64,000 bases of DNA from Protoeuglena noctilucae. Lineage: Eukaryota. Of the stretch, positions 2,248 to 54,222 are shown piece after piece (within the stretch, counting starts at the first letter, position 1; every line of letters begins with the position of its first letter). The notes under the pieces are model-generated. The model searched no databases. It saw nothing but the letters and a program-made list of their open reading frames with translations, and was not told where the DNA came from. The DNA lies in the NCBI GenBank assembly GCA_958009085.1, contig OY253669.1:1240001-1304000 (forward strand), given 5' to 3'. A program made the position numbers and the translations under genes.

Positions 2248-3650
2248 ATGACGCGCGTCGGCTTCCCAGACGACGGGAGTCCCATTCCGGGGGGCATCTC
2301 CGAGCGGCTGGTGCGCGGCCGGCCGAGGGACTGCACTGCCACCGCCGCTTGGCGGAAAACTGCACGCCGCTGCTTGCGCCGGGCGATGGCGCGGCTTTGC
2401 GACGCTGCTGAGCCATGCCCCCGCCGCGCACGCAGTGGAACGACTCGCTGGACGTGGCTTACCAGTCCCTTCACCACCCGTTCGTCGTGGGCCTGTGCCA
2501 GGGCACGCTGCCCCGTGATGCCTTCCAGCACTACGTCGGCCAGGTGCCTGGACAGCGCAGCGAGCCAGATGAGCGAGGATTACCTGCGGTGCTGCTGCGA
2601 ACCGTGTCGCAAGTCCCCCGGCCTTCAGGATTTCTTCTACCTGGGCGCGTACCTCGAGAGCTACGCCACAGCCCTGGAGAGGGTCGATGCCGAGGCGGAC
2701 CCGGAGACGCACGCCGTGATCTCGAGGCTGCACCGGGCCTGCCAGGACGAGACGGGGCTGCACAGCGCCTACTGCGCCAAGTGGGGCGTCGACCCGACCG
2801 TTGCTGAGCCCTCTGAACCCTGCCTGGCCTACGTCAATTTCCTGCTGGGTGTCGTCCGCTCGGGGGCGCCCGTGCACGAAATCCTCGTTGCCATGCTCCC
2901 GTGCACGCGGCTCTACGCATGGTTAGGGCGCCTGATGCTCCTGGCCGACGGCCAGCGGAACCAGTACGGCGCGTGGGTCATGAACTACGGCACCGAGGAC
3001 TTCCAGGTGCGGCGCTTGCGTTTCTCAGATGGTTTGCACACAGCACAAATGGACACCGTCGCCATGCGTGGCCGGTCCGGTTCCTGTCGCAGGCGCTGGC
3101 CGCCACGAAGGAGGCGATGATCGACCGGATCTGTCCCCAGGACAGTGCCACGTACCAGAAGCTCCTGGGTTACTACAGGTGCTGCCGCCAGGCTACGTGT
3201 CTGGGCTGTTATGGCAGGAGTCAGCGGCCTGACGTGCGCTGCCCATCCACCGCCGCCCCCAGGGAGGCCATGCGGCAGGAGGTGAACTTCTGGGGAGCGC
3301 ACCCGGGCCTGCACCTGCAGCGCATGAACCTCGGGGCGGTCGAGGTCGACCCGAGCTACGGCCTGAGCGCAGAGCAGCTGCAGCAGGTCGCAAACGCGGC
3401 GGCGGCGTGCAAGGGCAACGCAACCGACGGCAAAGCGCCCATGAGCATCCGGCTGTCCCCGGGCTGGCGACTGACCATCTCGGGGCCCACGGCAGCGGTC
3501 CCCAGCTCCACGGCCCGCCCCCTGTTCCACGTGGTGCGTGTTTTCCGAATCAACGAGCTGACTTGCGACGCATTTGCCATCGCGGAACTGGACCGTGCAT
3601 TCATCTCCTCCGCAGCCGAGGGACGGCGCGACGGGCCGCCTGCTGGATGA
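2248..3650 (+). CDS. TenA/thiaminase II family protein (Cys-type) with a C-terminal extension; 5 exons
   Basis: Spliced product contains 'SLHHPFVVGLCQGTLPRDAFQHYVGQDFFYL', 'AMLPCTRLYAWLG', 'YGAWVMNYG' and 'AMRQEVNFW'. GT-AG introns near 2311, 2544, 3008 and 3179; TGA stop. Confidence 0.85.
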
Positions 3651-3889
3651 CGCGCCTGGCGAGTACACGGCGACCGGCTGGCACGAGACTCTCGCGTTCC
3701 TGACTTCGTAACCAGGCCACGCGCCCGTGTTCATCGACGAACTGAGATGTTAAGAAACGGTAGTAGGAGCTCTAGCAGGAGAATACTCACGAGGAGTTGG
3801 CCTTTTCTTGAGAGAAAGTAGTTGCGAGGCTGGCTGAAGCTGGGAAGGCCGCGGGCAGGTCCTCTGTGGCACGTAAGATTCTTCACAAC

Positions 3890-5412
3890 ATGGAAAACGG
3901 GCATGCGTCTCGGGACAGGGCGGACAGGGCCGCGTCGGGGGCGGGCGCGGAGTCCAGCGAGCGGATCCTGCCGCCCTTACCTCTCGCCAACTTCCGCACG
4001 CGATTCGTCGTCCCCGATGATGTCAAGGACGAATGGCTTCCCTACTTCAGGCAGCTGACACTGTCGAGCCTCGGCGGCAGCCTCCATCGCGAACTCAGCG
4101 TCAGCTTTGCCGCGACCTTTCACCCGCGCACAGGACCGACATGTACGGCAATTTCGGCCTGCGCCGGTGGCCTTGGTACGAGTACATCCGCCTGCCCGTG
4201 TTCGCGATCACCGTGCTGCCGCTCCGGGTCACGGTGCTGGCCATCGTGAGCGTGAGCCTGCGGGTGGCCGCGGCCATCCAGACGATGCTGGGGACGAGGG
4301 CTGCCAGGGTCTACGCGCACATCAACGGGATGTTCAGCTGCATGACGGGCGTGGTGTGCGGCTTCGGCGTCCTCCCGCGCGTCATCGTCGTGGATGCGCC
4401 CCCAGCGGGCTGCCCGGACCGATTCACAGAGAACGGCGTGCTCATGCGCCCCCCGCTCGTCATCAGCAACCACTCGAGCTACGTGGATGTGGCCATGATG
4501 TCCGGGCTGCTGTACCCCTCGTTCGTGGCGCGCGCGGGAACCGAGAAGCTGCCTTTCTACGGCCCCGTGTCCAAGACCATCCGCTGCATCCTGGTGAGGC
4601 TTGCGACTGACCGTGGCTTCCAGCCTTGCACTGCCAGGGAGCGTCGTCACCCGCGGGTCGGCCGCCGGCGCAGGTGGAGAGGGAGCGCCCCAAGAGCTCA
4701 GCGGGCCAGGAGGAGCAGAGGCCCTCGAACGGCAACGACTTACCCCTTGCGGCGCAGCAGGTGAGGGCACCATTGCTGTGGTTGTCCCGTCACCGCACCT
4801 GTCCCTGCCGTAGCCGCCCGTGTTGCCAGCGCTGCCCCGTCCACCCTGCAGGTGGTCGACCGCTTGCGAGAGCTCCGGGAGCGGGCGCGCACGGGCCGGC
4901 CCTTCCGTTCCCTGATGATCTTCCCAGAGGGCACGACCACCAACGGCCACTTTCTCATGCAATTTAGGATCGGCGCTTTCCGTGCCGGCGTGCCTGTGCA
5001 GCCCTACCTCCACGTCTACCGCTCCACGACCGCCAGCGTCTCCTGGGAGTCCATGTCGTTCCCGATGCAGTTCTTCCTCGTCCTCTGCTCCCCCTTCACC
5101 CTCTCCCGCACGTACGCGCTCCCGCCCTACTATCCCAGCGCCCAGGTACCCTAGGGGCGCTTGCTGCCGTCCGCGGCCCTGGGCAGAACACCGCACCGAC
5201 GCGTGTCCTACGTATGTTCCCCGCAGGAGGAGAAGGACCCGCTGCTGTACTCCAGGAACGTCCACTCGTACATGGTGGAGTGGTCAAAGAGGCTCCCTTG
5301 GCTAGCTGAGCGCGGGGGGCTGATCCCCACCGATGCGACGCTCGCCGACAAGCGCGACTTCCATCGGTGGCTGCTGTCGGGACGCCTCCAGGACGCGAAG
5401 AAGGCCGAGTGA
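3890..5412 (+). CDS. Lysophospholipid acyltransferase (LPEAT/LPCAT-like); 5 exons
   Basis: Acyltransferase motifs NHSSYVD (HX4D) and FPEGTTTNG; N-terminal 'PYFRTDMYG' as in plant LPEAT1. The first intron (4051..4133) is GC-AG. TGA stop. Confidence 0.9.
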
Positions 5413-5614
5413 AGAGTGGCGCAGCTCCACTCCACAGCGCAACAGCAGGGCTCTGGCGAGGGTATCTGCCGGAGTTTACCTTGAATCCCAGCGAAGAAAC
5501 GGAGGCACTCTTTTCTCTTCCAGTGTCAGAGGAGAGGCTGACGCAGACTGACTGAGTTTTAGGGCCACCGACGCACTCCACGGCTCCGAGCGGAGCTCGC
5601 AGCAGCTGGCTGCG

Positions 5615-8600
5615 ATGCTGCAGGTCGCCCCGCGCATCGCTGGTGCGCTATCGCGTTCCGCGTGCTCGGAACGACGTATCAGCGCGCCGACGCCCTGCAT
5701 CACGCGCCCCTGCCCAGGGCTGCAGCTGATCAACCGCCAAGGACCCGTCGCCAGGAGCCTGTCGGGGTTTGCTGGGAGCGTAGGCGGCGCGCAGTACGAG
5801 AGAATCGCGTTTGCAGCGGCCCCCGAGCTCAAAGTCCGCGCAGAGGCCGCGATCAGCCAGGGTGTCACGCTGCACAATGGAGGGGCGACCGTGCGGGTAA
5901 GCGCCCCCCTCGCGCCTTTCCGACATCAATGCCGGCTTTCTTTCGTACCGATACGAAGCTTGGTGGTCTCCGCGCGCCCGTGGGATGCGCAAATGCGGCG
6001 AACGCGCCCCACCCCAGGTGTGGGCGCCCTGCGCGAATGGCGTGCGACTGCAGCTGAGGGACAGTGCCAAGGAGATCGAGCTCGACAGAGAGGGAGACGA
6101 GTGGGTCGCGACCCTCGCCGCGGGGGTTCTTAAGGTGAGCGCGGCGGGAGGTGCGACGTGGACGTTAGCTCTCGAGGACTGCTCGATCCTCCGCGCCGCT
6201 GCTGCCGACCCGGGCTCCGCTGCGTCCTATCTGCAGCACGGCACGTGCTACCGCTTCGTGGTCAGCACCAGGGATGGCCGCGAGGTCCAGCGCCGCGACC
6301 CGTACGCCCGCTGGACGGATTACGACTCGTACTGGTGCTTTGTGGACGACCCCGCCGCGTACCGGTGGCGCACGCCGGCGGGAGACCAGCGCCCGTTCGA
6401 CGAGTACATGATTTACGAGATGCACGTCGGCAGCTTCACCCCGGAGGGCACCTTTGCCGCCGCCAAGGAGCGGCTCAAGCACGTCGTGGACCTCAACTTC
6501 ACTGCTGTCCAAGTCATGCCGCTGACGGAGCACTCGGACCGCTGGGGGTACAACCCCCGGCAGCTGCTCGCCGTGCATGGCCCCTACGGCACCCCCGACG
6601 ACTTCCGCGCCTTTGTCGACCACGCCCACGCACTCGGGTGCGCCTGCTGGCGAGGCCCACGCATGACTCGCGCCCGCTCATGCGACCTGCGTTGTCCACC
6701 TCTGTATTCGTCGTCTAGTGAGGCCCACGCATGGCTCGTGCCCGCTGACCCGCCCCGCGCTGTCTGCTTCTATACTTCTGCAAAGTCTCACGTCCCTCTG
6801 TCCCGTCGCGTTCCTCAGGCTGTCGGTGATTGTGGACGTGGTCCTCCACCACGGGGCCGTGGAGCGCAACGAGCTGTGGGACTGGGACGGCTGGGAGGAG
6901 ATGGGCAACGGCGGCATTTACCATGAGCGTGCCCCCGACACGCAGTGGGGCCGGGCCTTCGCTTTCTGGAAAGCCGAGGTGCGGCGCATGGTCCACGACG
7001 CCTGCACGTCGTGGCTCGGGGACTTCCGCTGCGACGGCCTCCGATTCGACTCAGCCAACGACCTCCCGCCCGACGTCATCCAGCCCCTCACGTGGTCCCT
7101 GAGGTGAGAGCTCTGGACAGCACGAGAGCTGAGAGCGCTAGGTAGCACGGAGAGATTGAGATATTACATATTGCTGGGCTGGCAAGGGGTCTCTGCCCAC
7201 CTTGCGCCTGCCACGGGCGCCCTCGACCATCTCAACACACACGCTAGCGACACCTGTTCGCATTCGCGTCAGTTGCCAGTCTCAGCACGCCAGTGACACT
7301 CGATGGCACCCGTTGCCATCGCCGCGTCCTCGTCGCTGCTCTCAGGGAGCGTTTCCCCGGCCGCATCCTCACGGCGGAGGTGACCCCTGAGAACCCCCTG
7401 TCGGTGCACGAGGGTGGGTTCGACTCCGTGTGGCTGCACTCGGGGTACTTCGACATCATCCAGCAGCACCGGGCGCTCGGGCGCGGCCACCACGGCGGCG
7501 GGGACTGGGCGGCGGGGTGGGACCTCCCTCGGCTCCGCACGGTCATGGGCCTGCACTCGGGGTTCACCTCCCCGACGCAGTGCATCAAGTACCTGCTGGG
7601 AAGCCACGACCAGTGCGGTTGCACCCACGGGGGACACTACGAGGACTACAAGGTGAGCGAGAAGCCACGGAGGGGCGATGGCTGCGAGGTCGGATGGCGA
7701 GGCACACGCGAGCAGCTTTGATGGGATGGGTTGCTGCCGATGGCCGCCCGTTGCGTCCGACCGGTCATGGGCCCATTTGGCATGACATGGCCGCATTCGC
7801 TGCCGACCCGGCCATGGCCGCAGATGATTGGGGGCCGTCACCGGTACGCCACAGACCAGGTGGGTGGGCGCGAAGCTGGTTGCACGTGTGAATGCAGTAA
7901 TTGCGTGTTGACAGCTTTCGGGTTTGGTTTGCTGGGCGCTCTGGACACGATGCCGGAATCACTGGCTGCAGTACGGAGGCGGGCGGGAGGACAAGGGAGC
8001 TGCGGCGGCGGCGCGGCTGTGGTGGACGTCCAACGTCGGCGCGGCTGGGCTGACGATGATGTTCATGGGGACGGAGTGGAACCAGACGGCGTGGTGGGAC
8101 GTGGACGAGCACCACCGCCTCCAGTGGCAGCTGGGACGTGAGTGACTAGGGAGGGCTGGGGTAGCAGGGGGCCAGTCGGTGGTAGCTCAGCGTCTCATGG
8201 CATCGATGGTGACCTGCCTATGTGACATTGACGGATGGTGACTCATGCAACACGCCTTGCGCCTGCACAGAGGACCAGCTGGGCCGGGAGATGATGGCCT
8301 TGGTCCGCGATTCCAACGCGCTCCGGTGGCGCTACCCCGCGCTGAGGCGGGGCTGGGCGAACATCCTGCACGAGGATCGCCCCAACGGGGTCCTGGCGTT
8401 CGAGAGAGTGTCCGAGGGCGACCTGCGCATCGTGGTGGTGGTGAACGCGGGGCGCGGCAACTGGCAGGGTGACGAGTACGGGGTGTGGGTGGGGGGGGGG
8501 TCCCTGAAGGAATGCTTCTCCAGCCAGGACGTGGCATACGGTGGCTGGGAGGGCTGGAAGTCGAACAAGGGCCGCGTGGTGAATGTGCACGAGGGCAAGG

Positions 8601-8716
8601 CGTGGATCAGCATCCCCGAGCAGTGCACGCTCGTGTTCGTGGACTATCCGTGGGAGGTCGACGCTGGGGCTGGGGCTGGGGCGGGGGCCGGGGCTGCGGC
8701 CGGGGCTAGGGCGTGA
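5615..8716 (+). CDS. GH13 alpha-glucan enzyme with a CBM48-like N-terminus (TreZ/branching-enzyme-like), probable plastid transit peptide; about 8 exons
   Basis: Motifs 'VRVWAP', 'RRDPYAR', 'IYEMHVGSFTPEGTF', 'WGYNP', 'DVVLHH', 'DGLRFDS' (nucleophile), 'TAEV' (acid/base) and 'GSHDQ'. Ser/Arg/Ala-rich N-terminus. TGA stop. Confidence 0.88.
8662..8708 (+). repeat. (GGGGC[TGC])n hexamer repeat encoding the Ala-Gly tail of the GH13 protein
   Basis: gctggggctggggctggggcgggggccggggct; translates as AGAGAGAGAGA. Confidence 0.8.
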
Positions 8717-8973: not shown

Positions 8974-10866
8974 TCAACCGCCTTCGAATAAGGTGTGCAT
9001 GCCGTGGTTGAACTTGGAGAAAGTGGCGGACACCAAAAGACCTGCGGCAGTGGGTGCGGTGACAAGACGGTTGTGTGCAACAAGTGGGCCGTGGCCTGCA
9101 TGGATAGAGGGGCCCCATCCCTGCCGCCCTCTTGCCTGAGTCAGCCAGATCTCGGACCCAGGCTGGCGCCTCGTCTCAGGTGCCCATCAGTTTGATCTCA
9201 AGGATCGCGTATTCTGAGCAAATACTGTCCCCAGGCACCGGCTTTTCCTGCACGGCAGGCACGGCGCATCACTCTGGTCACCGTCGCTGCCATGAGCAAG
9301 TGGGCGAGCGCGTGCAGGGCTGCGTGCATCTGCAGTGCTCGTCACACCTGAGGGTCGCGGTGCCACCGCCCCTGCTCCAGGCAGCTGGGCTGGCCACGAG
9401 GGCTCTCCAGGAACATGCACACGTGGGTGTCCATGGAGATGCGCACAGCCGCGTCGTAAGGAATCTGCACGCACCGAGGGCAGCGGGGTCGCACAACGCC
9501 ATCCCAGCGCGGGCGGCGCCGCAGGCCGCGAGCAAGGCAAGCAGCCCTTGCCTGAAACGCAGCGCGCATGTACTGGGTGCGCACGACGGGCGCCAGGCGC
9601 TGGCCGATGACGGCCCTCTGCACGTCCGCGAAGAGTTGCGCGAAGGGCGCAACCTCCCCGGGGCTCTTGCCCTTATTCGTCAGCGCCCGGGAAGCCTCCT
9701 CGACCGTCAGGGCGCCCGTCAGGAAGGGCACCACGCTTTGCTCCGGCAAGGCAAACCTGTCCTTCCTCCCCGAAGCCTCCTCCCCCGGCTGCTGTGCCTC
9801 GGACTTGCGCTCCACGTACACCACGGACGGCTCCCGCGGGCCGTACCACCGCAGCCGAATGGCGTCTGCCTTGGGGTGCATGTTCTTCTGGCGCCCGTGG
9901 TGCAGGTCCCTCTCCGCGTTGTCCAGGTAGGCCGAGTTGATGAGCTGAGAGTCCCCGGTGTAGTCCGACGGGTTGTAGCGGAAGAGCGGCAGGTGGCGGA
10001 GGATGGACAGCTTGACGGCCGACACGTCCTCCTGCCGCACCCAGAACTGCGAGAGGGCGAGGGACGCGCCGGGAGCCGTTGCCCGACACGTACGCGCATT
10101 GTCTGGGACCAGAGAACACATGACGGTGCACGTGACTGACCTTGGTGGTGGCGCGCACAAACTCTTGCGCGTCGTCCTCGTTCTTCTTGCCCGCCCCGTC
10201 CGTGCCTCGCAGGAGCGCGTACACCTCCGAGAGGTCCACGAATACCTCCGTCGCAGCGCCCTCCAGGGGCGTCGATTCGCGTTCCAATACCAGTATCTCA
10301 TGCGCAATGGCGTCCGCCTGTCCTCGTGCCGAGGCGGCCCAGGCAGGGTCGGCAAGCGCCCCGGAGACGGCCGCGTCCGCAACCCAGTGTCGCAGCTCGG
10401 AGCCACTGCGGAGCCAATGGGACGGGAGGTTGGCGAGGGGCCAGCTCGATTAGGTCGGGGGAAGGAGCGGGAGCGGGCCAACGTGCTTTACGCACCAATG
10501 CTGGAGGCGACCAACGCTTCGGTGCGCTGCCATCTCTCCCCCCGTGCACATGTGAGACGTCTCAAGCCGATTCACTGCGAGAGGCGGCCGGATAGGCTGG
10601 TTCGCGCGAGGGCACACGCATGCGAAAGGATGCGCGCTCCCTCGTCGCGACTCACCGTCCGCAGGGTCTTTACTGTCGAAGAACAGCAGAGACACGGAGT
10701 TTGCGTCACAAGACCCGCCGCCCAAGCCTTCCAACAGCTGCCTGCGGGCGCTACCGGGCATTACCAGACGAGCTCGCGTCGTGGCGACCTGCCGCAGCGA
10801 CGCGACGTCGAGCGCGACGAAGAATCGACGAGCGAGACGATCTATCCTAAACGCACGTCGTGGCAT
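8974..10866 (-). pseudogene. VTC4: Degenerate VTC4-like polyphosphate polymerase: reduced SPX remnant, internal TGA, no recognisable transmembrane tail
   Basis: VTC motifs 'QEFVRATTKFWV', 'DSQLINSAYLDN', 'AIRLRWYG', 'VYVERK', 'VRTQYMRAAFQIPYDAAVRISMDT' and 'AILEIKL..*DEAPAWVRDLADSG..FSKFNHG'. In-frame TGA at 9178..9176. The 5' exon structure is uncertain. Confidence 0.7.
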
Positions 10867-11861: not shown

Positions 11862-14800
11862 ATGGAGCATCGTCGTAGCGAAGTGTTGACGCTGGAGGGC
11901 GAGGCATCTGTCGGGCCGTCCTACCGGCACGCCCCTCCGGTGCATTCCCCGAGGCTGCGGGGCCACTCGCAGGCGCACACTAGCGAAGCGCATGCAGCGG
12001 CCGACCACGGGGCGCGGGCGAAGGCCGCGAGCCCCTACCTGGCCTCCCCCGCGCATCCGCCCCCTGTGCGCTCGTCGCCCTCTCCGCACAAGTCTTCCTC
12101 GCGGATCCTTCGCTTGGAGACGACACCGTCGCCGGAACAAGCGCCCGTCGGGCCGGTCCTCTCCGCTTCGCAAAGCGCGGAGGCCCTGCACCGCCACGAG
12201 GAGGAACGCCGGTCCCCTCCGCCCTCCACGTCGCCGCCTTCCTCCCCCTCTCCCCACCTCGCGTTGGAGAAGGATGAGAAGGACTTGAGGGATCCCGGCG
12301 GCCGCGCGGAGGGGAACGGGGACGGCGCAGCGGGGCCACGGCGCACCATGTCGAGCCATGCCCGCCTCGACGGGGCGGCCTCCGCGCGGCCGAACGCCCG
12401 CGTGGTCGTCTCAGTCGCTTCCAAAGCAGACTCTGCAGCGAAGGAGCTCGGCAGCGAGGCATACAGCGGGGACGTGCGGCCAATTGCAGACATGACGCCG
12501 GAGGAGCTGGAGAGGGAACGGCTGCGACTCAAGGGAGCTTCGGGAGCGGACACGGCCCCTCTGCCACGGTGCGCCGCTTGAGGTCCACCGTCATCTCGGC
12601 TTGCAGGGCGTCTCTTGGCCCGTCGCTTGGCCCGTCGCGCCCGTGCCAACACCTCACCCTCGCTCTCCCCACGCAGGTGGAACAAGGCGCTGGGCCCCAG
12701 CTTCCGCATCTCCCGCGGGGGGACTCTGATGACTCTGCTGGCGAAGAACAAGGAGGAGGTGGAGCCCATGCTGCCCGTCGTAGAGGCCTTTGAGGCGGAC
12801 GCCTTGGATGAGCTGGGCGTGGGGAGCGGCCACAGCACGGCCGGGAGGGAGCACGAGGGCTACGGCGACGACGAGCGGAAAGCGGGGCCCGCAGACAATG
12901 AGGGCGAGGCAGTGAAGGTGAAGGGGAGCTACCCCGTCTTCGCGCTCCCGGACGCGGCCGCGGTGGCAGGGAGCGGGCCAGGGACGGCAGGGGTGCTGCC
13001 CCTGACGAGGTTCGGGTCGACGCCCCGGGGCCCGGCGATGCCCGCCAAGGCCTCGCGGCTGGCGGCGGTGACGCGCGCGGGGGCGGCTCCCGGTCCCCGC
13101 AACCACGTGTGGCCGGCGCCCGACTCCGACGACGCCCGGGGGTCCCTCCTGGCCGAGGGCGTGCCGTCGTCCAGCGTGGCGCGGGGCGCCGGCAGCGCGG
13201 TGACGGCCCCGGCGGAGCCGGCGACCAAGGTGCGCGACATGGTCAAGACGTCCGTGTGGAACGCGGACGCGGACTTCGTGGAGATGGTGCGGCAGCGGTC
13301 GTGGAAGGCGCGGGCGCAGGGCATCGCCAAGCGCATCGTGTCCAACCAGGACTTCGAATTCACCGTCATCGTCCTCATCTTCGCCAACTGCATCACGCTC
13401 TCCATGTACCGGCCCCTGGAGGGCGACAGCGCCCCTTTCAACAGGCGAGCGGCTGCGTGACGCACAATCCCGCGTCACTATTTGCAGATTTGGCGTCTCC
13501 CGCGGTCGCATGCCTCAGTGCCAAGCATGCCCCGCCCGCCCTCTGGGTCCCCCGCAGCCGCCTGGCGATGGCCGAGCTCGTCTTCAACGTGGCCTTCTCG
13601 GTCGAGGTCGTCTTGCGCTTCATCGCCGACGGCGGCATCCGCAACTACTTCCGCGAGGCCTGGAACGTGTTCGACTTCCTCATGGTGATGGCGGGGTACT
13701 CCTCCCTCCTCCCCGTGGGCAACAGCAACACGGGCGCGATCCGCGCGCTACGTGCGCTCCGCGCCCTGCGCCCCCTGCGCACCATCACGCGGTTCCAGAG
13801 CCTCCGCGTCATCGTGGTCGCCTTCCTCGAGTCGGTGCCCATGATCGGGCAGGTAACGATGCTCATGTTCTTCGTCATGGTCCTCTTCGGCATCTCGGCC
13901 CTCTCGCTCTTCTCCGGGGCCTTCCACTACGAGTGCTACGACCCCGTGACGGGCCAGCCCGAGACCTACCCCAACCCCATCCTTCCCGACGAGTTCGGCT
14001 GCGGGGGGTGGCGCACGTGCCCCCCGGCGTTCCCCGTGTGCCGCCACAGCAGCGCCAACCTGGCCATCAACGCCGCCGGCTTCGACAACCTCGCCACGTC
14101 CCTCCTCACCGTCTTCCAGATCATGACGCTCGGCGACGCATGCATCGTGATGTACAGGGTCATCGACAACACCTCCTGGGCATCCGCCCTCTGGTTCGTC
14201 GCCCTTATCCTCTTCATGACCCACCTCTCGCTCAACCTCTTCCTCGCCGTGCTCAAGCTCGAGTTCGGCCGGGCCCAGCGCGCCTTTGCCGAGGAACTCA
14301 AGGCGACGCGCAAGTCCACCAAGAAGACGACCTTCGCCAAGGCCATCAATTTCGTCCGCGCGGGGATGCACAACTTCGTGGACCGGCAGCGCGCCAAGGT
14401 GCGTGGCGCGGACTGGCACGTGCTGCGCGGCGCGACGTCGGGAGACCTGCTGCGTGTCGCGTGGCGCTGCCACCGTCGCCCGACCGCGTGGCCTGCGGAC
14501 GCAGTGACATATCTGCGTTTTTGCTCTTGCTCTGCAGAGCCTGGACCTCCTGGTGGACGCCAGCGAGGGGTCCGTGGCCTCGGCCATATCAGGGCTGCCT
14601 CCGAAGAAGCTGACGGAGGAGCAGCGCGTGGCCATCCGGCAAGCGGCGCTGGAGGAGCTCGTGAACGCGGAGCGGCGCGTGGTCGTGCGGGCCTGGCTGC
14701 GGCTGCGGCTGCGTCTCATGCGGCTTTCGGACAGCACGGCCTTCAACAACTTCTTCCTGTTCGTCATCCTCGTCAGCACCGTCTTCATGGCATCCGAGTA

Positions 14801-17800
14801 CTACGGCATGTCCGCGACCTACACGGCCGTGCTCAACGGTGAGTGGCATGCATAGCGGGGCCGAGGCGGCAGTGCGTTCGACACCTGTGCATTTAACTAC
14901 CCGCGCTCCGCTGGCGCCTCTCTGAGAGAAGCGCTCGGCCATGTCCGCCTGCTCTCTTACGCGATCCACCGCGCCCCCGCTCTCTGCCCGCAGTGGCCAA
15001 CTACGTGACCACCGCGCTCTTCTGTTTCGAGCTGGTCATCAAGATGGTCGGGTACACGTTCTGGGGCTACATGAGCGACGGCTTCAACGTCTTCGATCTC
15101 GGTATGGTCCTCCTGTCTCTCTTGGACATCTTCTTCCTGTCGGGAGGAGGACTGCAGGCGCTGAGGGCGCTGCGATCGCTGCGGGTGATTCGGTCCCTCC
15201 GCGTCCTCCGCATCTTCAAAATGTTCAAGTACCTGCAGTCCCTCAAAAAGATCGGCGACGTGATCATGCAGGCGCGTTCTCCCCACGCTGCCGCGGGGCT
15301 GGCGGCAATGGGGTACCACCTTCGCACCACCAAGACACGTGCACAGCTGTCGCGGCGGGACGCTTCAAGTGACGCGTTCCGTGTCCGCAGAGCTCCGGGT
15401 TCTTCTTCTCGGTCGCGGTGCTGATGATCCTGTTCATGCTGGTCTACACCATCATCGGGCTCCACACGCTTGGCGCCGTGATGCTGGACGACAGCTGGGC
15501 CACCAACAACTTCTCCTCCTTCGTCACAGCCCTGCGATCGACCTTCCAGGCGAGGATCTCAACCGGCTGAGCTCCCTTCCTTCGCCTTGCTGCTAGCCTA
15601 GCCATGCTTGCCCGTTGTGTGCCGTGAAGGGTCCCATGTTGGCGCGTTGGCGCGTGCAGCTACGGGCCCGCGCCCTAACCTCCCTCCTTGGCTCTCCTCC
15701 GCAGCTTTCCACGCTCTAGAACTGGCAGGTGCAGATGTTTGCGTACGTGCGGGCGTCCGGGTGGGGCACCTCGGCCTTCTTCATCACCTGGGTCATCCTC
15801 AGCAACATCATCCTGCAGCAGCTCTTCCTCGCCGTGATCATGGAGGCCTTCGAATCCAAATACGACACCGAGGTGAGACGAAGAGCTACGCGCGGAGAGA
15901 TTGAGCGGGAAACGCGGCACACGCATCGGTGGCATGACCGTGGCTGTCGCCACTTTCACAACACGCGCAGGTGACGAAGGAGATCAAGTTCCTGTTCAAG
16001 CGCACGGCCAAGGGGCGCAAGCAGGGGCCCAAGAACAAGACGCTGAGCGACCAGGACCGGCTGGGGTCCAAGGTGGGGGCGTCGGCGCTGATGGGCCCTC
16101 GAGAGGAGAGCGTGACGTCTTTCCGCCCAGGCGCGGACGGGCCCAGGGGAGGCGGCGCGACGAGGTTCGGGCCGTCCGCGACGGAGAGCGCCCGCATGGG
16201 CGACGCGGGGCTCCCGCTAGGCGCCCAGTTGGCACGCGACACGGCCTCTGGGACCGTGCCGGTGTTTGCCCTGCACAAGGACGACTCGGTGGGCGGTGGG
16301 CAGCCGGGCGCTGCTCTGACCGAGAAGGTCCCGGCGCGGGTCACGCGGTTTGCCCTCGCGGATGGGGCTGGGCCTGCCGTGGCCGTCCGCACCGTCCCGG
16401 CACCTGTCCTGGAGCGCCCGAGCGTGGCGTTCGCAGACGCACCGGCCGAGGACGGCACCGAGCCGGGACCGCTCTGGGCGACACCCGCGCGGCCCAAGAG
16501 CGCCGCGGCGACGCCCCAGCGGATGCATGTGGCGGATGGTGCTGCCCCGGCATCCCCAGCGATGTTTGTCGGGGATGAGCCGGCGACGGTCGGGCGCGAG
16601 GCCGCGTCCCGGCAACGGCCGCAGGAGTTCCGGGGCTGGGTCGCCGATGCCGAGCCCGACGGTGCGGGTCGTGGCGCGCATAGCCCGTTGCCAGGGCCGA
16701 CGGCCCCTGGCCCAGTGGCTGAGTCTCTGGGGTCGGCTCACCTGTCGGGGCGCGTCGCGCGGGCGATACCCGGCTCTCGGGTGGAGTTCTCGGGACGGAG
16801 GACGTCGTCCTCATCTAAGGAGTTGAGGAGCGTGCGCGGGTCCGAGGAGGCCGTGGCACAAGCGAGGGTGGCTGGCGGCCGCCTCGCCCGCACGACGTCG
16901 AGTTCCTTAGCGGAGCGGATCGGGCGCGGCCTTTTTCCGCCGAGCGCGGGCCCATGGGGGCGGGTGGCACCCACGCTCTTCATCCCGGAGTGCACGCCCT
17001 TGGACGTGCCGTCCACGCCCTCCCCGACCGGCAGCCGGCGGCTGCGGGGCTCCGTCGACGCGGCATCGATGCCCGGCACGCCCCACCGCGGATCCTCGGT
17101 GTCAGGGCGCTCCCTGTCCCGCCGCGCGTCAGACCGAGGCCTGCGGCCCCAGCGGTCGCTCTACGAGAGCCCTGTGGGGCGCCCGGTGAGTCGGTTCCGG
17201 ACGAGCGAATCCCTGCACGAGGCGTCGCCGGGAGCGACCGCGCGGCTGCCGTCCTGGCGGGAGGACCGCGCTGGGTCAGCTGTCGGGGAAGCGGCATTTG
17301 GGGCCGAGGGCAAGGGGCTGGCGCACGCGGACGGTGGCGCGAGGGACGTGCGGCCGGCCCCAACCGCGCGGGTCGATGCGGAGGGTCTGGCGGCGTCGGG
17401 ATGGGACCTGAGCGAGCTGGCGGGCGTGCGACGCAACACGGTGGTCCCCGCTGGCCCCGTCATGGAGGACTGGTTCCAGCGTCCCGGCAAGGAGTCGAGC
17501 GCGGTGGGTAGGGATGACTCCGGCGGCTTGGAAACGGGCAAGCGGGTGAAGGCGGACCGGGCGGCGCGGGAGTCGGGGTACAGCGACACGGCTCCCAGCG
17601 TGAGCGAGGTCTCCCGGACGTCCGGGTCGCGGTTCTCGTTCGCGGGGGACTTCGGCGAACTCACGGAGATACAGGATGAGGTGAGCGCGGGGTCGCAGCG
17701 CCGCAGCGTGGCCAGCATGACGCTGCCGTTGCCAGCGTGCGCGTTGACTAGCGCTGTTGATTGACTATGCCCCGTCCTCGTGCGCAGTTGGCGGATCTCG

Positions 17801-20800
17801 GGAGGGACGAGTGGGGCTCGCTGCACAGCGGGAGCACGCAGACGACGGTGACGCAGGGATCGATCCCTCAGACGGCGGTGCGGCGCAAGAAGGGCGGCAA
17901 GCGCACGCCGCCGCACCTCAAATTCCAGGGCAAGGCTTTCGGATTCCTGGACACCTAGAGCCCCTTTCGCCGCACCTGCTACCGCATCGCCACCAACAAA
18001 CGCTTCGAGGTTTTCATGCTCGTTGTCATCGCAAGTGCGAGCCGCGCCTGTGCCATACGCCGCCATCTGCAGCGCCGCGTGCCATGATTGCCATCCGATG
18101 CTGTGACCCTCTGCTGGACGCTCTGTCGCTCCCCGCGCGCAGTCAACTGCGGGATGATGATGTACGACCGCCCCACGATCGTCAAGGGATCAACGTCCTA
18201 CGCGGTGCTGTACTGGAGCGACGTGTGCTTCACCGTCCTGTTCGGCATCGAGATGCTCATCAAAATGACAGCCTTCACGGCCAAGGAGTACATCCGGCAC
18301 ACGCCCAGCGCGGTGGACACGGGCATCGTGGCCACCAGCGTCCTCACCCTCGCTCTGGAGAGCTACCTCCACCAGATCAGCGTCATCAAGGGGCTGCGGG
18401 TGCTGCGGGCGGTCAAGCCGCTCCGGGCAATCACGCGCAGCGCGGGGATGCAGCTCGTCCTGCGCTCCATCCTCCTGGTGAGCCGCGCAGCGGTACCTGT
18501 AATGCCGCGGCCCACCGTTGGCGCCCCGGTGCCGCGCCGGCTGTGCATGGGTCCTGCTTACGACAACTGCCCCTTGGTTGAACCTCCCGCAGTCTATGGT
18601 GGCCATGGCCAACGTGTCAGTGATCCTGCTGTTGTTCTTCATCATCTTTGGCATCCTGGGCGTCCAACTCTTCGGCGGAAAGTTCTACTCTTGCAACGAC
18701 CCGACCGTCGACGGCAGGACGCAGTGCGTGGGCACGTTTGTCGACCCTAGCTCAGGTGCGGGATGCTGGGCGCGGCGTGCAGTCGTCGAGAACACTGGTG
18801 CGCTGCAGTTGCCCCGGGGTGCGTTGGCCGGGGTCACTAGGACCCTAGCCTCGTCCTGATGCTGCTCTATGTCCCATGGTGCATGCCCCGTCCTGCCCCG
18901 TCCCTTTCCTTTGCCATTTACACACACCTGGTGCTCTCACACCTCACACGTCACGCTCGCGCGCCTCGCAGGGGCCGTGACCCAGCGCGTTTGGAGCAAC
19001 AGCTTCTTCAACTTCGACAATCTCGGTCACGCGCTCGTCATCCTCTTCGTTTTTGCCAACCAGGACAGCTTCACCGACCTCCTGAGCCTGGCCATGTCGA
19101 CGCGCCAGCCCGACCAGCAGCCGGTGCCCGGGGCGAACAACTGGGCCGTGCTCTACTTCATCGCCTTCATCTACATCGTCGGGTTCTGCATGATGAACAT
19201 GTATGTTGGGTGAGGGACGCGCGGGGCGGGGCACACAACTTGGCAAGTCGTGCCCCTCGCTCACAGCCGCCGGCGGGGCGCGAGGGCGTCTCGACCCCTG
19301 TCCCACCCGGTCTGGGCGCCGCAGCGGGGTGTTCTTCCATTTCACTGTGTGAAATTCCCCTTTCTCGCCTCTTCTCTCCCACAGAGTGGTGTTCTTCCAG
19401 TTCACACGCATCAAGATGCTCAGCCAGACGGGCACGGCCTTTTTCACCAAGGAGCAGTCCCAGTGGGTGGAGCTAAACAAGGTCCTGGCACGGTTGAAAC
19501 CCGAGGTGAGGCCTTGGGTGGTGGGTGTGAGCCCCGGGCATGCGACATGAGTGGGGTGGTGCTGGCACAACTGAGAAAGGAGGTGAGCATCAGGCTTGTG
19601 GCATGGAAGGGGTTTGCCGGCATGGTGTGGCTGTGTCGGGACCTCCGCGTTCCGACGCCGGCGTGCGTCCCTCGGCCTGCAGGGCAAGCCGCAGGGCCAG
19701 TCGCGGTTCAGTCGCATGTGCGCGCGCATCATCATGTCGCCCAAGTTCGAGGCCTTCATCATGGGCGTGATCGTCGCCAACGTGTTTGTCATGGCCCTCA
19801 CCTGGTACAGCGAGCCGCCCGCCATCGTGATGCTCCAGACCATCTCCAACTACGTCTTCACCGCCATCTTCCTCGTCGAGGTCGTCCTGAGGGTGAGCCA
19901 GGCTAGCTTTTGCATCAGCGCAGGGGGGGCCCACGGCTGGTGGCAGCCCGGCGCCATGCCAGGACAGTCTGGCCGTCTGCGCAGGGAGCGGTGCCAGGCT
20001 AGCTTGTGTGTCAGCACAGGGTGCCATGCCAGGCAATGGCGGGTGCCACCACCGGATGCCACTATATCGCGTAACCCCTTGCGCCACTGTTCCCTCTGCA
20101 GGCCTCTGCGTGGACGTGGCGCGTCTACTGGGTCTCCAGCTGGCACCGCTTCGACTTCTTCATCTCGGTCGTGTCGCTGGTGGACGTCGTGGTGTCCCTG
20201 GCCGCCTCCGCCGTCAACATCGGCTTCATCCGCATCCTGCGCGTGCTGCGCCTGGCGCGCATGCTGCGATTGATCAAGCGCGTCCGGGGCCTCAACGACC
20301 TCTTCACGACTCTCTACATCTCCCTGCCTGCCCTCTGGAACGTCGGCGCCCTCATCTTCCTCCTCTTCTTTGTCTACGCCTACATCGGGGTCCAGATCTT
20401 CGGTCACCTGGCGCAGTCGACCGGGGGGGCCATCAACTACCACGCGTCGTTCGCCGACTTCGGCAAGGCCATCCTGACGCTCTTCCGCGCCTCCTGCAAG
20501 GACGACTGGTCGCCCGTGATGCAGGGCATGATGGAGAAGCCCCCGGCGTGCTCGTACGCCGCCGGCACGTGCGGGACCCTCTTCACGCTCCCGTACATGC
20601 TCTCCTTCATGATCCTCGTCGGCATCGTCATGATCAACCTCTTCCCGACCGTCATCATCGAGAACTTCGAGACGACGATGCAGCAGGAGGAGTGGACGCT
20701 GCAGCCCGCCACCCTCGACACCTTCGTGGTCCTATGGGCCAGGTACGACGACGGGTCGGGGACCATCCTGCCGCGGCAGTTCGAGGAGCTCCTCGTGGAG

Positions 20801-21765
20801 ATCGGGCCTCCGCTCGGGCTGAAGAAGAACGCCTCGCCCAAGGAGATCGTGCAGGTGAGAGACTGTTGACGGATGGCGAGGGACGGCAAGGGTAAAGTGG
20901 AGTCGGCAAATAAGGGGCTGTTCATGACAAGAGGTGGCTAGGGCGCAGCACAAGCATGGAGCTTATGCAGGCAATGCCAGTAGGGAGGCTCGCTGCGTGC
21001 TGCGCGTGTGCGTGTGGTCCCTCGCATCGCTCTCTGACGCGCGCCCTGCCCATGGATGCGCCCCCGCAGTTCGTGACGGAAATCGACATTCCGCTGACCA
21101 CGGACGGCCGCGTGAGCTTCGGCGCTGCGTTGTACGAATTGGTCCGTCGCGTGTGCGAGGTGGATCTCCCAGAGGGCGAGGTGCTGCGGCAGGTGGAGCG
21201 GCTGTACAAGCGGCTCCTCAAGGGCGTGGACATGTCCAAGGAGGACCACAACAACTTCTCGGCCTTTGTCATTGTCAAGCGGGTGCAGAAGCGGTGGCGC
21301 CACCTGTGCCGCGCACACAACCTCGTCGATCGGCACGCCGTCAGGTCCCTGCGCGCCGGTGTGCCCTCCGCGCAGCTCGTCGTGGTGAGGCCCGCGCGGG
21401 TGCTAGGGTTACAGCTAGGGGATAGCGACACGTCCCTGAGCCACGCTGGGCCAGCGCGTCACGCCAGTTTTCCAGTGCATCGTGGTTGCAATCGTGACGC
21501 AACCCCCGTGCCCGCACCCCCGCAGGCTCCGCCGCGGACTCTCAAGCAAGAGTTCGCCAAGGCGTCCACGAAGGTGCCGGGGCTCGCGTTCAAACTCGAC
21601 CGCGCCAGCCTGAAGGCCTTTTTGTCGTCCGAGCTGGGCCGCGAGCTCATGGCCAGGGACGGCGGCGCTATTGCGGGGCTCGCGCTCCCGTGGACGCGGA
21701 CCGGGTCGCAGCGCCACTCCATGCGGCGCGGCCGGACCCAGGAGGAAGAGGATCAGAAGCGATGA
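11862..21765 (+). CDS. Four-domain voltage-gated cation channel alpha subunit (Cav-like); about 18 exons, two in-frame TAG codons
   Basis: Four 6-TM repeats, each with an S4 segment (RALRALRALRPLR; RALRSLRVIRSLRVLR; KGLRVLRAVKPLR; RILRVLRLARMLR) and a pore loop. C-terminal EF-hand-like 'WARYDDGSGTI' and IQ-like 'VKRVQKRWR'. TGA stop at 21763-21765. Confidence 0.93.
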
Positions 21766-22044
21766 CCAGGGCCCAGCAGAGGGCCCTCGAGGCAGCGGTG
21801 ACCGTGTGCGGAGCGTGCCGCATCCCTTTGTGCAGTTTTGCGACACCTGTCTTGTCCGTTTCCTCCATTTTGCGTGACAGCGTCCAACACCGCGTCTTGC
21901 GTTAGTTTCCAGGCGCACGCTGCAGCATGCCGTGTCGCACTCATGCCTTGGACGCCGGACGCCCCATGTCAGCCTCCGTTGGCGCTCGCCGGTGCTGCCA
22001 CAATTCGCGTTCCCGCCTTGGTCATGGCTTTAGCGCCTCCGCTA

Positions 22045-22273: not shown

Positions 22274-22659
22274 CTACTTCGTGATTAGGTAATACAGGTT
22301 ATAGGCGATGCTCACAGACCCGAGCCCCGCGATGTAGAGCCAGTAGACGCGGTTGACGGTGTCGTCGCTGTCCGTGGCGTTGTAGACCCACGCGTGCCTC
22401 CGGTTCTGCGGCGCGCAGCGGCTGGGATCCTTGGAAAAAATACGGGAGAAAGCGCGCCAAGACGCCGCGCGCGCCCGGGGCCGGGAAACGGGACCGGTCG
22501 CACGGTCGCACGGTCGCAAGGCGTCACCTTCGCCTCGGCCAGGTGCCGCTGCTCCGTGATGATCTTCGGCGAGGAGAGAGTCCCAGTCTGGGTTCCCGTC
22601 GACGCCTGGGTGGCCATGCCCCGGCGCGCTGCCTGGGCGAGCTGCCGAAGCGACCGCAT
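22274..22659 (-). CDS. Small mitochondrial single-TM protein, cytochrome c oxidase subunit VIIa-like; 2 exons
   Basis: Presequence-like 'MRSLRQLAQAARRGMAT', then 'KIITEQRHLAEAK|NRRHAW...YWLYIAGLGSVSIAYNLYYLITK'. Size and layout resemble plant COX7a-like proteins. TAG stop. Confidence 0.5.
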
Positions 22660-26400: not shown

Positions 26401-29400
26401 CGGCATGTTTTGGCTCCATGTTACTGCGCTTAGCTTCTTGGCATGCAGCTGTCTCGTGCCTTGCTCAACCCGGGTGTGTAATCAAACAGTGGCGTCCCCC
26501 ACACGCAGGAGACGGATAAAACGGCGTCGGGGCAGCCGGCAAAGAAGGGGCTCTTCGGGTTCAGCCTGTCCAGGGGCGCCAGAAACACGGAGGCATCGGG
26601 GTCAGCACCCGCAGCCACGCCGGGTGGCCCGGCCCCTGCCCAGGGGGCCCCCGGGGTCCCGAGTGGGAGTGCACCTCAGCAGCCAGGGATGGTGGCGCAG
26701 GCAGCTGCACAGGGGTACGCGCAGGCAGCTGGTCAGGGGTACGCCCAGGCGGGGGCCGCAACTGCACCTCTGCCGGCGGCTATAATGACTCAGGGGTACG
26801 GGCCAGCAGGCGCTGCCACTGCACCTCTGCCGGCGGCTGCGATGACTCAGGGGTACAATCCAATGGGGGCGACTGCATTGGGGTCCAGCGATCCGCGGAG
26901 CATGGTGGGCGCACAAGGTCAGCCAGCCGCTTCTGCTCAGCCCGGCACTGCTGGGCAGCCTCAGCCACTGCCAGGTCAGGCATACCCGGGCACGCAGCAG
27001 CCCCAGCCGTTGCCCGGTCAGGCATACGCGGGTGCACAGCAGGCCCAGGGCCAGCCCTTGCCTGGCCAAGCGTACCCAGGCACGCAGCAGCCCTTGCCCG
27101 GGCAGGCAAATACTGGTGCGGGCGCACACCAGCTCCAGCCCCAGCCATTGCCTGGTCAGACATACCCGGGCACGCAGCAGCCCCAAGGCCAGCCCGGCCA
27201 GCCCTTGCCCGCATCCCATGCAGGGGCGCAGCACCAGGCTGCAGGGGGGCAGCCTGGAGCCTATCCAATTGCAGCGGGTGCTGCGTATCCAGTTGCCCCG
27301 GTTGGTGGCTATCCGGCACCTGGAGTCTCGCAGCCACAGGCCGCAGCTAGGGGAGCTGTGCAGGGCGCGCCGTATGCAGGGCCGGCGCAGGTCCCGCCTG
27401 TGGCCGGTGGCTATCCGGCACCTGCCCCGGCACCTGCGCAAGCCGTGCCCGGCCAGCCTGGACCAGGCGCTGCGGCGAAGCAGTCGCCTACCAAGCAGCC
27501 GTGGTTCGGCAGGCGCAAGGAGGAGAAGGCGGCGAAGGCTGCCGCCAAGAAGGGGGCGGCGAGCGCCGCGGCCCCAACTCCCTCCCCGCTCGCCCCCGCA
27601 TCGCAGCCCGCGCAGCCTCAGGCCGCCGGCGCGCAGCTGCCCGGCCGCCCGGGCCCGGGTCAGCAGCCGCAGTGGCGGGCTCCCGCACCGGCGCCTGCGC
27701 CCGTGCCTGCCCCCAAGGCGGGCCAGCGGGCCGGTGCGACTGCGGAGGTCTTTGCGACGGTGCATTGGTGCGTGCTGCCCCTCTTCCCCAAGACGAGCAA
27801 GACGGAGCGCGTCAACATGCAGCTGCGGCGTGCGGTGGCCAAGCCGGGCAAGGCGCCTGAGGACGAGTCGGGCCTGCGCTACAAGCAGGGCCGGAACCTG
27901 ACTCTGGCGACCACGCTGCGCAAGAAGGGGGCCGGGGAGTACCCCGGGGAGGACGGCAATGCGGACGTGGGCGAGGGCATGGTGGGCCTGGTAAAGGACG
28001 TGGTGTGGGACGCCATGGAGCGGGTAGTCACGTCCGTGGTGGCGATCCGACTGCAAACGCAGCTCAGGGAGGCGTGCAGAACGGGGCCCTTCGAGTACCA
28101 GCTGCTCGCGGAGGCCAAGGCTCGGCTGACGACCACGCAGGTGAATGGCGGCGTGGCTGGATGATGCAGAGTGGGTGATGGGTGCGGGACGGCTTGGTGT
28201 GGTGTGGGTGATAGCAAGCCGGGGTGTTGATAGGTGAAGCGTGCCGTTGGCACGGGGCGTGGCGTTGAGCGTGACACGTGGCCCTCCCTGCGCCCGCAGA
28301 GGCTGGGGAAGCTCATCAGCTCCGACGCGCGTAGGAGCGCCACGTGCTGCGTGATGGCGAGCATGTCAGCCGACCAACGCACCCTCAAGCTCCAGAGGAA
28401 CGTCCCAGAGAACTACCTTTTCGCCTCCTCGTCATTCAGTGAGCGGCATCCGCACGCCCGCGCCCTGCCGCGCCACAGTCGGTGCCCCGGCTGTCTGACC
28501 CTAGTCGCACCCCTCTGCTCACCGCACCCCCGCAGTCCCTGGCATCGTGCGCAAGCGGCAGGACGGCAGGATCTCCACGGAGGCCTCCTTCACGACCCTC
28601 TTCCTCCAGGTCTCGCCGCGCCCCGCCCCTTGCAAGGCCCTCGCAGCGCACTTGAGGTCCTTCCGCGCCGTGCTTGCCAAGGCCGTGCGGGCGCAGCTGC
28701 GAGCCAAGACGGGCGGCCGGGGGCGCTACCTCCTGCGCGTCACCGCAACCAACGGCCTGTTCTGGTGACTGCGCGATGCCTCGCTTTGTGGGCGATGCTG
28801 TTGGTTGCATGCCGCGCCACACCTGTGGCGTCCGCCTGTGCTATGCATGACTCCAATGACCCCCCGAGCAACTTCCCTGCCCTATCTCGTCACGCCGTCC
28901 ATTGCTCCATTCCCTCTCCTCTCGTTCGCCCAGGCTCAACAAGCCCGCCCTCTTCGACGCCCTCTCGGCCAGCGACCTCTCGGGCCAAGGCCAGCCTGAC
29001 AACGAGCTCGTAGGGATGCCCGTGTCAGAGGCCCTCGAGGTGCTGCCGCTCCCCAGCGACCCCTACACGGCGCTCTTCGTGGAGCTGGTGTGGTCGGCCA
29101 ACCCACTCCGCAAGGGCGAGGCGCCCCCGCCCATCGAGGGTGCCCCTCAAATGGCTGACGACAAGGTGAGGGGCGGGCAGCATCAGTGGTGACGAGGCGA
29201 GCCTCAATGCTTGCCAATCCAGGACTCTCTGTTCTGTCCTTGGCTCTCCTCATTACTCTCGCCGCCCTCCTTGACCCCCGTAAAACCCCGCACCATTGCG
29301 TTGCCCCCGCAGCGCCGCATGCTGGAGGGCCGGCCCTCCCAGCGCCGCAGCTGGCGCACCCTGACCGGCGCGGGATCAACCCCCGACTCCCAGCAGCCGC

Positions 29401-53550: not shown

Positions 53551-54222
53551 CTTCTACACAGCCCGATGTGTCCTGCGGAGACTACGATTCCGACGTTTGA
53601 CGCCCCAAGACGCCGGCATCGCCACGTCTTCGTGCGGGCAAGGCAGCCGGCGCCCCGGCCGCGATGGATGCACGCCGTGCAGGGCATGCACGAGTTGGGG
53701 GCATGCCATCGACGACTGCGCAGCGTCGCGGGCGCCTGCGTCCCCACAGGCTTGCGCCAGGGTGGGTCCAGGAGGCACGGGGCCCCAGATGGCGCAGCCT
53801 GGCCCAGATGGTGCGCGATCACCTCTTCCCAGCCGACGTGTGGCCGTCCCCTCCTGCTATCCTTACGCTGCGCTCCTTAAGGCCCGGGCAATCACTCCAA
53901 ATTGATGGGTTGCTGCGAGGGCACGCACTGCGAGCGGCTTTCACCCTTCCAAATTCTCCTTCTCGGCACTCAAGATGGTGTGGAGCGCAGAGTCGTCCCC
54001 GGGCGCGACGAGAGCCGGAAGCGTGGCGTTCTTGCGGCGCGCGTTGCCAGCCAGGCCGCGGTGCGGAGTTTTGGCACAAAGCCATCACCATTCGAAACTC
54101 CTGATGTCAGCTTTCATGCGCTGAGACGCTGGAATTCACTGCTGGGGCTCCTGTGAGCCGACTGCAGCGCACCGGTACAGAAAGACAAGAGGACGCGCAC
54201 TCTGCCCTCTCGCCAAAGGCCG

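Follow-up and report, generated by a model that had tools for sequence, protein, structure and literature searches.

The genome assembly of Protoeuglena noctilucae contains, within a stretch of 64,000 nucleotides (GCA_958009085.1, contig OY253669.1, positions 1,240,001 to 1,304,000 of the forward strand; hereafter the window, whose first letter is position 1), a plus-strand gene for a four-domain cation channel resembling the Cav and Nav families. Its reading frame carries a TAG triplet at 15717-15719, at the position of the domain II selectivity-filter glutamate. Does this TAG stop translation in a disrupted gene, or is it read as an amino acid? A first-pass annotation, made from the sequence, had left open decoding as Glu or Gln, read-through, editing, a recent nonsense mutation, an assembly error and the use of the TAG as a splice acceptor. 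We addressed the question with public sequencing data, homolog comparisons and a codon and TAG survey whose scope was the window, which is eukaryotic with a G+C content of ~66% overall and 63-73% per 2-kb segment. Four metatranscriptome runs and several DNA runs from two other studies matched the window. Contigs of the RNA runs X7, X10, and X11 and of the DNA run X4, which comes from a different study, were placed on positions 12000-22000. All four runs were available as contigs, which drop rare variants, and minor alleles, minor isoforms, and low-level editing would therefore go unseen in them.

On the plus strand, the acceptor region reads ...ctcctccgcag, followed by the exon sequence ctttccacgctcTAGaactggcag... 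The upstream coding block ends with ...R-S-T-F-Q at 15549 and is followed by GCGAGG instead of a GT. After the CAG at 15702-15704, the frame continues as L-S-T-L-TAG-N-W, with TAG as the fifth codon of the exon. Contigs of X7 and X10 both join 15546 to 15702 with three ambiguous letters, and only the +3 placement yields a canonical intron (GC..AG), namely GCGAGG...CGCAG at 15550-15704. Since RNA contigs of two runs join to 15704, the mRNA uses the CAG acceptor and not the AG of the TAG. The exon defined in this way by the RNA joints and by its Ion_trans match (exon 6, 15705-15872) encodes the end of the domain II pore loop and S6. The first X10 record covers 15702-15870 without any other letters, and the X7 contig has the same two flanking joints. 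The triplet, designated TAG no. 1, is unchanged in RNA contigs (X7 and X10) as well as in the DNA contigs of X4, one of which spans 12000-19436 with no letter differing from the window. Thus, the base call at 15717, which the first-pass annotation had singled out for verification, is TAG in both RNA and DNA contigs, with no GAG or CAG, and the gene is transcribed.

The RNA contigs permitted a model of the entire channel gene (13272-21765, plus strand) with 16 exons, the 5' end lying upstream of 13272 and not being fixed. The model comprises exons 1-6 (?-13444, 13558-14398, 14538-14838, 14994-15271, 15391-15549, and 15705-15872), exons 7-11 (15971-17680, 17788-18034, 18143-18477, 18593-18755, and 18972-19209), and exons 12-16 (19385-19505, 19683-19892, 20102-20854, 21070-21384, and 21526-21765). 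Fourteen of the splice joints could be set to GT..AG or GC..AG, while the fifteenth intron (13445-13557, GC-AG) was derived from the reading frame and an RNA contig end at 13444. Statements on splice forms refer to the displayed joints; three further RNA joints on 12000-22000 lie outside this set. When joined, the 16 exons form a single frame of ~2,313 codons from a conserved N-terminal region to a TGA at 21763-21765, at which the coding score also stops. This spliced frame contains exactly two internal stops, both of which are TAG. The other one, TAG no. 2 (17956-17958), resides in exon 8 (17788-18034), a few residues before S1 of domain III. Exon 8 is flanked by RNA joints from 17678 to 17786 and from 18034 to 18143 and shows no other letters, which places TAG no. 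2 inside the spliced mRNA. The depth of the X4 DNA contig is even across the channel gene (~45-50), with no other letters over 10 kb. Contigs of X11 cover parts of the gene and have no listed splice joint. One of them (depth 5.7) provides the sole RNA/DNA difference listed in 10 kb, a C>T at 13290 in the N-terminal region, which turns CGG (Arg) into TGG (Trp) and is thus non-synonymous. A strain variant, an error, and C-to-U editing are the candidate explanations.

With TAG read as X, Pfam assigned exon 15705-15872 to Ion_trans positions 185-239, the match running straight through the TAG (E 1.4e-6). In a MAFFT alignment of the channel with 30 homologs, the column of TAG no. 1 is that of the domain II filter Glu, with Asp in some sequences. 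The sequence, the RNA joints, and the alignment therefore confirm the initial proposal of a CAG acceptor at 15704 followed by an in-frame TAG at the filter Glu. The pore closest to it is that of EukProt P0011, with T-L-E-N-W versus T-L-TAG-N-W. Marine metagenomes provided 17 related loci with 44-59% identity over the matched part of the 51 amino acids following the TAG. The filter codon is GAG (Glu) in 12 of them; the other five are uninformative, as their match sets in only further downstream or is directly preceded by an intron or frame break. Three of the 12 GAG loci have an intron at the same position as the channel gene, just before the filter codons. Since GAG occurs in 12 of 17 relatives and Glu in P0011, these comparisons identify GAG as the ancestral codon, one G-to-T step away from TAG. 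TAG no. 2 aligns to a variable, mostly acidic position, occupied in homologs by D (Volvox and several others), E, N, S, or K.

The alignment with close relatives that the first-pass annotation had envisaged was thus successful with respect to the ancestral codon, but it yielded no ortholog close enough for a dN/dS analysis. An exhaustive search of 1.84 billion representatives with the domain IV exon gave nothing above ~50% identity besides the window's own open reading frame (ORF), and a search with the linker exon likewise returned only the window's own ORF and no relative. That linker ORF (P0076) has one and the same sequence on the 15 contigs that contain it, and its 90% cluster comprises no variants. 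Because no close ortholog was found, dN/dS was not computable.

All four Ion_trans repeats are joined in one spliced model, and they would form a single polypeptide only if both TAGs were read through. The E-values are 6.4e-44 for domain I, 3.4e-18, 0.0053, and 1.4e-6 for the segments of domain II, 1.1e-16 and 6e-11 for domain III, and 5.3e-36 for domain IV. The values for domains III and IV bear out the earlier statement that both remain conserved downstream of the first TAG. Each of the four domains has an S4 segment with R/K at every third position, such as the R-A-L-R-A-L-R-A-L-R-P-L-R run in domain I. The C-terminal GPHH match (E 0.0034, 17.7 bits) fell below the cut-off of 26.8. Judged by this architecture, the protein is a member of the four-domain voltage-gated cation channel superfamily, assigned to neither Cav nor Nav. 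Canonical filter rings are EEEE or EEDD in Cav and DEKA in Nav, each residue being followed by a conserved Trp. The ring of the P. noctilucae channel is non-canonical, with G/D-A in domain I, TAG-N-W in domain II, D-S-F in domain III, and D-D-W in domain IV. For this reason, we assign neither a Cav or Nav identity nor an ion selectivity.

Within the Cav/Nav/NALCN superfamily of green algae, the nearest sequences are EukProt P0011 and Volvox reticuliferus P0001, with 39-45% identity in the domain IV exon. P0011 shares both the unusual domain I pore (D-A for E-G-W) and the T-L-[E]-N-W pore of domain II. In contrast to the homologs, the P. noctilucae channel has D-S-F in the domain III pore (G/x-W/Y in homologs) and C-K-D-D-W in domain IV (T-G-D/E-x-W in homologs). 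It further differs from them by TAG as the domain II filter codon and by the second TAG before domain III.

How, then, is TAG no. 1 to be understood? On balance, we lean towards a null allele of the channel that is still expressed, or else a young unprocessed pseudogene, in an organism that uses the standard code, with TAG as a stop. Among the options of the first-pass annotation, a recent nonsense mutation fits best. A one-base change from GAG would have replaced the domain II filter Glu by TAG no. 1, and despite two premature TAGs the gene is still transcribed and correctly spliced. Translation would presumably end inside the domain II pore loop, and no working channel would be made; the change itself seems to be recent. 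That both internal stops are TAG is expected under this reading, because a GC content at third codon positions (GC3) above 0.9 makes TAG the outcome of most single-base nonsense changes. In the channel gene, GAG occurs 82 times, CAG 60, AAG 61, TCG 45, TAC 40, and TGG 33 times, and few codons lie one step from TGA or TAA. Given this GC3 and these codon counts, the exclusive occurrence of TAG carries little weight.

On this reading, the gene resembles expressed unprocessed (unitary) pseudogenes and natural nonsense alleles, which have premature stops in an otherwise intact, transcribed, and correctly spliced gene. Unlike them, it combines two stops with an unbroken frame, intact splice sites, and preserved codon bias, and a neighbouring gene is affected as well. 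Several observations indeed weigh against a nonsense allele. No frameshift was found in the 2,313 channel codons, and there is no sign of splice-site loss, as all 15 introns are canonical (12 GT-AG and three GC-AG). The GC3 amounts to 0.94 upstream of TAG no. 1, 0.86 from there to TAG no. 2, and 0.92 downstream of the latter, compared to 0.67 in the introns. X7 and X10, two metatranscriptome runs, both yielded assembled and spliced channel mRNA. Moreover, in-frame TAGs affect two of ~12 genes of the window, a high number if the genome is healthy, and no TAG but the first had been selected beforehand. The remaining ~6,000 codons of accepted models contain no in-frame TAG where an estimated ~1.7 would be expected, which still agrees with a uniform low rate (estimated P ~0.18). 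Finally, the two calls of TAG as a gene terminator described below are statistical, drawn from the codon usage of 20-21 codons.

The count of in-frame TAGs was obtained with a recalibrated exon-chaining predictor that fuses some neighbouring genes and predicts antisense artefacts; we used it only to locate where a TAG is needed. When TAG was allowed as a sense codon, the predictor required two TAGs in the channel gene and one in a gene with a NACHT domain. Twelve further TAGs were discounted as minus-strand artefacts, nine in a chain antisense to the channel and three in an exon antisense to the acyltransferase exon (4101-4589). The resulting density is three in-frame TAGs in ~10,300 codons, located in two genes, with no in-frame TGA or TAA. 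A codon-score segmentation of the window, trained on the channel gene, revealed no deep in-frame TAG, TGA, or TAA outside the channel. A flank-score scan for in-frame stops, which is insensitive near exon ends, recovered only TAG no. 2, located in the training gene itself. Three other candidates were dismissed. The TAG at 29673 lies just after a donor-like CAG/GCGTGC site (the slash marks the exon end), the one following the NDUFB7 exon lies just after a donor-like GAG/GCGAGT site (as read from the frame), and the one at 53554 precedes the start of NDUFB7. In addition, a weak minus-strand segment at 28299-28439, with a TAG eight codons from its beginning, was left aside on account of an overlapping plus-strand segment.

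The third TAG belongs to a predicted MLKL_N/NACHT/WD40 gene on the minus strand (about 50984-40401, ~2,035 codons in the gene model). Its domain order comprises an MLKL_N/RPW8-like N-terminus of the cell-death type, an NPHP3_N/NACHT NTPase, a TANC1-like winged helix, and WD40-like repeats, a predicted NLR-like architecture in an alga. TAG no. 3 (46447-46449, minus strand) is situated 10 nt before a G/GTGCGT donor whose phase suits the next exon, and is known from the model and homologs only. Homolog P0223 (1,527 amino acids; 64% identical in the NACHT exon) is collinear through TAG no. 3 and the exon junction, and a helix motif runs on past this column in nine homologs, which have W, H, G, A, R, or C at the site. 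A third in-frame TAG in a second gene is therefore part of the predicted model.

We also examined where TAG serves as a terminator. Nine exons were flagged as possibly terminal, five of them ending with TGA and two with an apparent TAG terminator. An eighth flag, a TAG at exon 20087-20926, was an artefact, as the true donor lay beyond the scanned range. The ninth is a TAG candidate at 5152 with only a weak donor nearby. One apparent TAG terminator is that of the NACHT-WD40 gene (40401-40403, minus strand), where GC3 drops from 0.875 in the 40 codons before the TAG to 0.55 in the 20 codons after it (binomial P 0.0003). No usable donor is found nearby (best score -0.8), and the homolog alignment of the gene stops near this TAG. 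The other one (22274-22276, minus strand) seems to end a small gene with two exons (22659-22528 and 22405-22274), in which 78 of 87 codons before the TAG have G or C at the third position, compared to 14 of the 21 codons that separate it from the next TGA (binomial P 0.004). From these codon statistics, TAG appears not to be avoided as a stop in the window.

The proposal that the channel TAG is decoded, as Glu or Gln in the first-pass annotation, finds no support in the window. A less definite form of decoding deserves closer consideration. A suppressor or near-cognate tRNA might read some internal TAGs while TAG still ends genes, and both the channel and the NACHT-WD40 protein would then be made at full length. 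This leaky use of TAG is possible, yet in our judgement unlikely. It would account for three in-frame TAGs in two unrelated long genes without any in-frame TGA or TAA, and for the intact frame, splice sites, and codon bias downstream of each TAG. TAG no. 2 and TAG no. 3, which the first-pass annotation did not contain, sustain it as well, both channel sites align to acidic residues, and three TAGs in ~10,300 codons fit a uniform low frequency. Conversely, TAG looks like a true terminator in two of the nine exons flagged, and no aligned residue is common to the three sites, with Glu at the first, D/E/N/S/K at the second, and W/H/G/A/R/C at the third, although three sites are too few to decide. 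The base following TAG is A, A, and T at sites 1, 2, and 3, respectively. The two channel TAGs, with CUC-UAG-AAC and ACC-UAG-AGC, lie neither in a context that promotes read-through nor upstream of an RNA structure of note (fold z -0.66 and +1.93). Known programmed read-through motifs are of the UAG-CAR-YYA type or consist of a stop followed by a structure. The channel shares with them an in-frame UAG with conserved downstream coding sequence, but its contexts differ and its downstream folds are ordinary. A search for tRNA genes within the window found none, and nonsense mutation at this codon usage would also be expected to produce TAG exclusively.

Comparison with variant codes bears on the same issue. 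Reassigned or ambiguous stop codons are known from the ulvophycean code (TAA/TAG=Gln) and from Condylostoma, Parduczia, Amoebophrya, and Blastocrithidia. The window differs from reassigned codes in its very low TAG density, the lack of a common aligned residue, and the fact that TAG is not avoided at gene ends. It resembles ambiguous codes in that more than one gene has an in-frame TAG in conserved coding sequence and the same codon also terminates. The accessible portion of the literature on reassigned stop codons among green algae describes nuclear instances for ulvophytes, ciliates, and Amoebophrya, together with organelle instances from green algae. A reassigned nuclear TAG in any marine green alga of high GC content did not turn up there, which argues against leaky TAGs in the present case. 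We are rather doubtful, too, about an early ambiguous stage of TAG reassignment, in which gene ends would be kept and internal TAGs translated, possibly as Glu at the channel filter, with rare sense TAGs persisting in long genes such as those of the channel and the NACHT-WD40 protein.

Apart from decoding, the organism might still have the channel thanks to an intact allele or paralog within the same cells or population, the assembly having captured a null allele or a redundant copy, as in a heterozygous diploid, a mixed culture, or after a recent duplication. Contigs would have dropped such a minority variant, and the C>T at 13290 in the X11 contig indicates that the samples held more than one sequence variant. 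However, the even X4 depth with no other letters over 10 kb, the TAG form in RNA contigs of two runs, and the single identical sequence of P0076 on its 15 contigs make an intact copy improbable. Still less probable are minor splice forms that remove the stops and provide an ORF at a low level. Both TAGs end in pyrimidine-AG, and GC-AG introns flank exon 5. The AG at 15718-15719 could act as an in-frame acceptor with the loss of five codons, and a GTGACG at 17848 could open an in-frame internal intron of 111 nt (17848-17958) that closes with TAG no. 2. On the other hand, the first deletion would take out the filter itself, a branch-like CTAAC at 15676-15680 favours the first AG, and the contigs of X7 and X10 show the CAG acceptor only and an unbroken exon 8. 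Splicing to 15720, another of the options first considered, is thereby ruled out for the bulk of the transcripts. An error of sequencing or assembly, or RNA editing of the TAG at a high level, is already refuted for the majority sequence, and we attach almost no probability to it. No point in its favour was found. The DNA contigs of X4, obtained in another study, and the RNA contigs of two runs are identical, 13290 being the sole difference over 10 kb. This excludes the assembly error that had been considered for the majority sequence, and high-level editing was not seen in the RNA contigs.

If TAG is plain nonsense, as we prefer to think, the locus would represent a clean case of a large ion-channel gene just after its inactivation, still expressed and spliced. 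The annotation should then mark the channel gene as disrupted, and the finding would hint at a lineage that is losing a voltage-gated channel. If TAG is partly decoded, a marine green alga would possess a new nuclear code variant at the rarely observed ambiguous intermediate stage, and all gene predictions for the organism would have to be revisited. As far as the available parts of the literature show, an ambiguous TAG, if true, would be a nuclear stop ambiguity in a green alga outside the ulvophycean lineages with TAA/TAG=Gln.

Some features of the channel gene stand apart from the question of its TAGs. GC-AG introns are unusually common, with three of 15 in the channel (13445-13557, 15272-15390, and 15550-15704), all with a CAG/GCG donor; two of them are verified by RNA and 13445-13557 is inferred. 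In ~11 further coding segments of other genes, the best nearby donor is (C/G/A)AG/GCGAG. The X4 DNA contigs break at 19407-19441, where a contig of 35 letters has about twice the depth (85 vs. 45), which suggests further copies of this short word in other parts of the genome. An RNA contig of very high abundance (depth 231 in X7 and 46 in X10) matches only ~21 letters at each of 15794-15815 and 18597-18617 and then continues with unrelated sequence. It probably stems from a different transcript that has short words in common with the gene, and the corresponding 21-letter joint from 15815 to 18597, which is of very high depth, was disregarded as part of that transcript.

The small gene at 22659-22274 (minus strand, 87 codons) is convergent with the channel gene, their stops being ~500 nt apart. 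Its product has a presequence-like N-terminus and one C-terminal hydrophobic helix, and no match was obtained in Pfam or the protein atlas. Neighbouring genes named through Pfam, at 53553-53232 (minus strand), 9342-10272 (minus strand), and 2415-8716 (plus strand), encode NDUFB7 (complex I B18 subunit), a VTC-domain protein, a TENA/THI-4 protein, an acyltransferase, and an alpha-amylase-family enzyme with a C-terminal beta domain. A FAN-like PH domain is encoded at 55225-55572.

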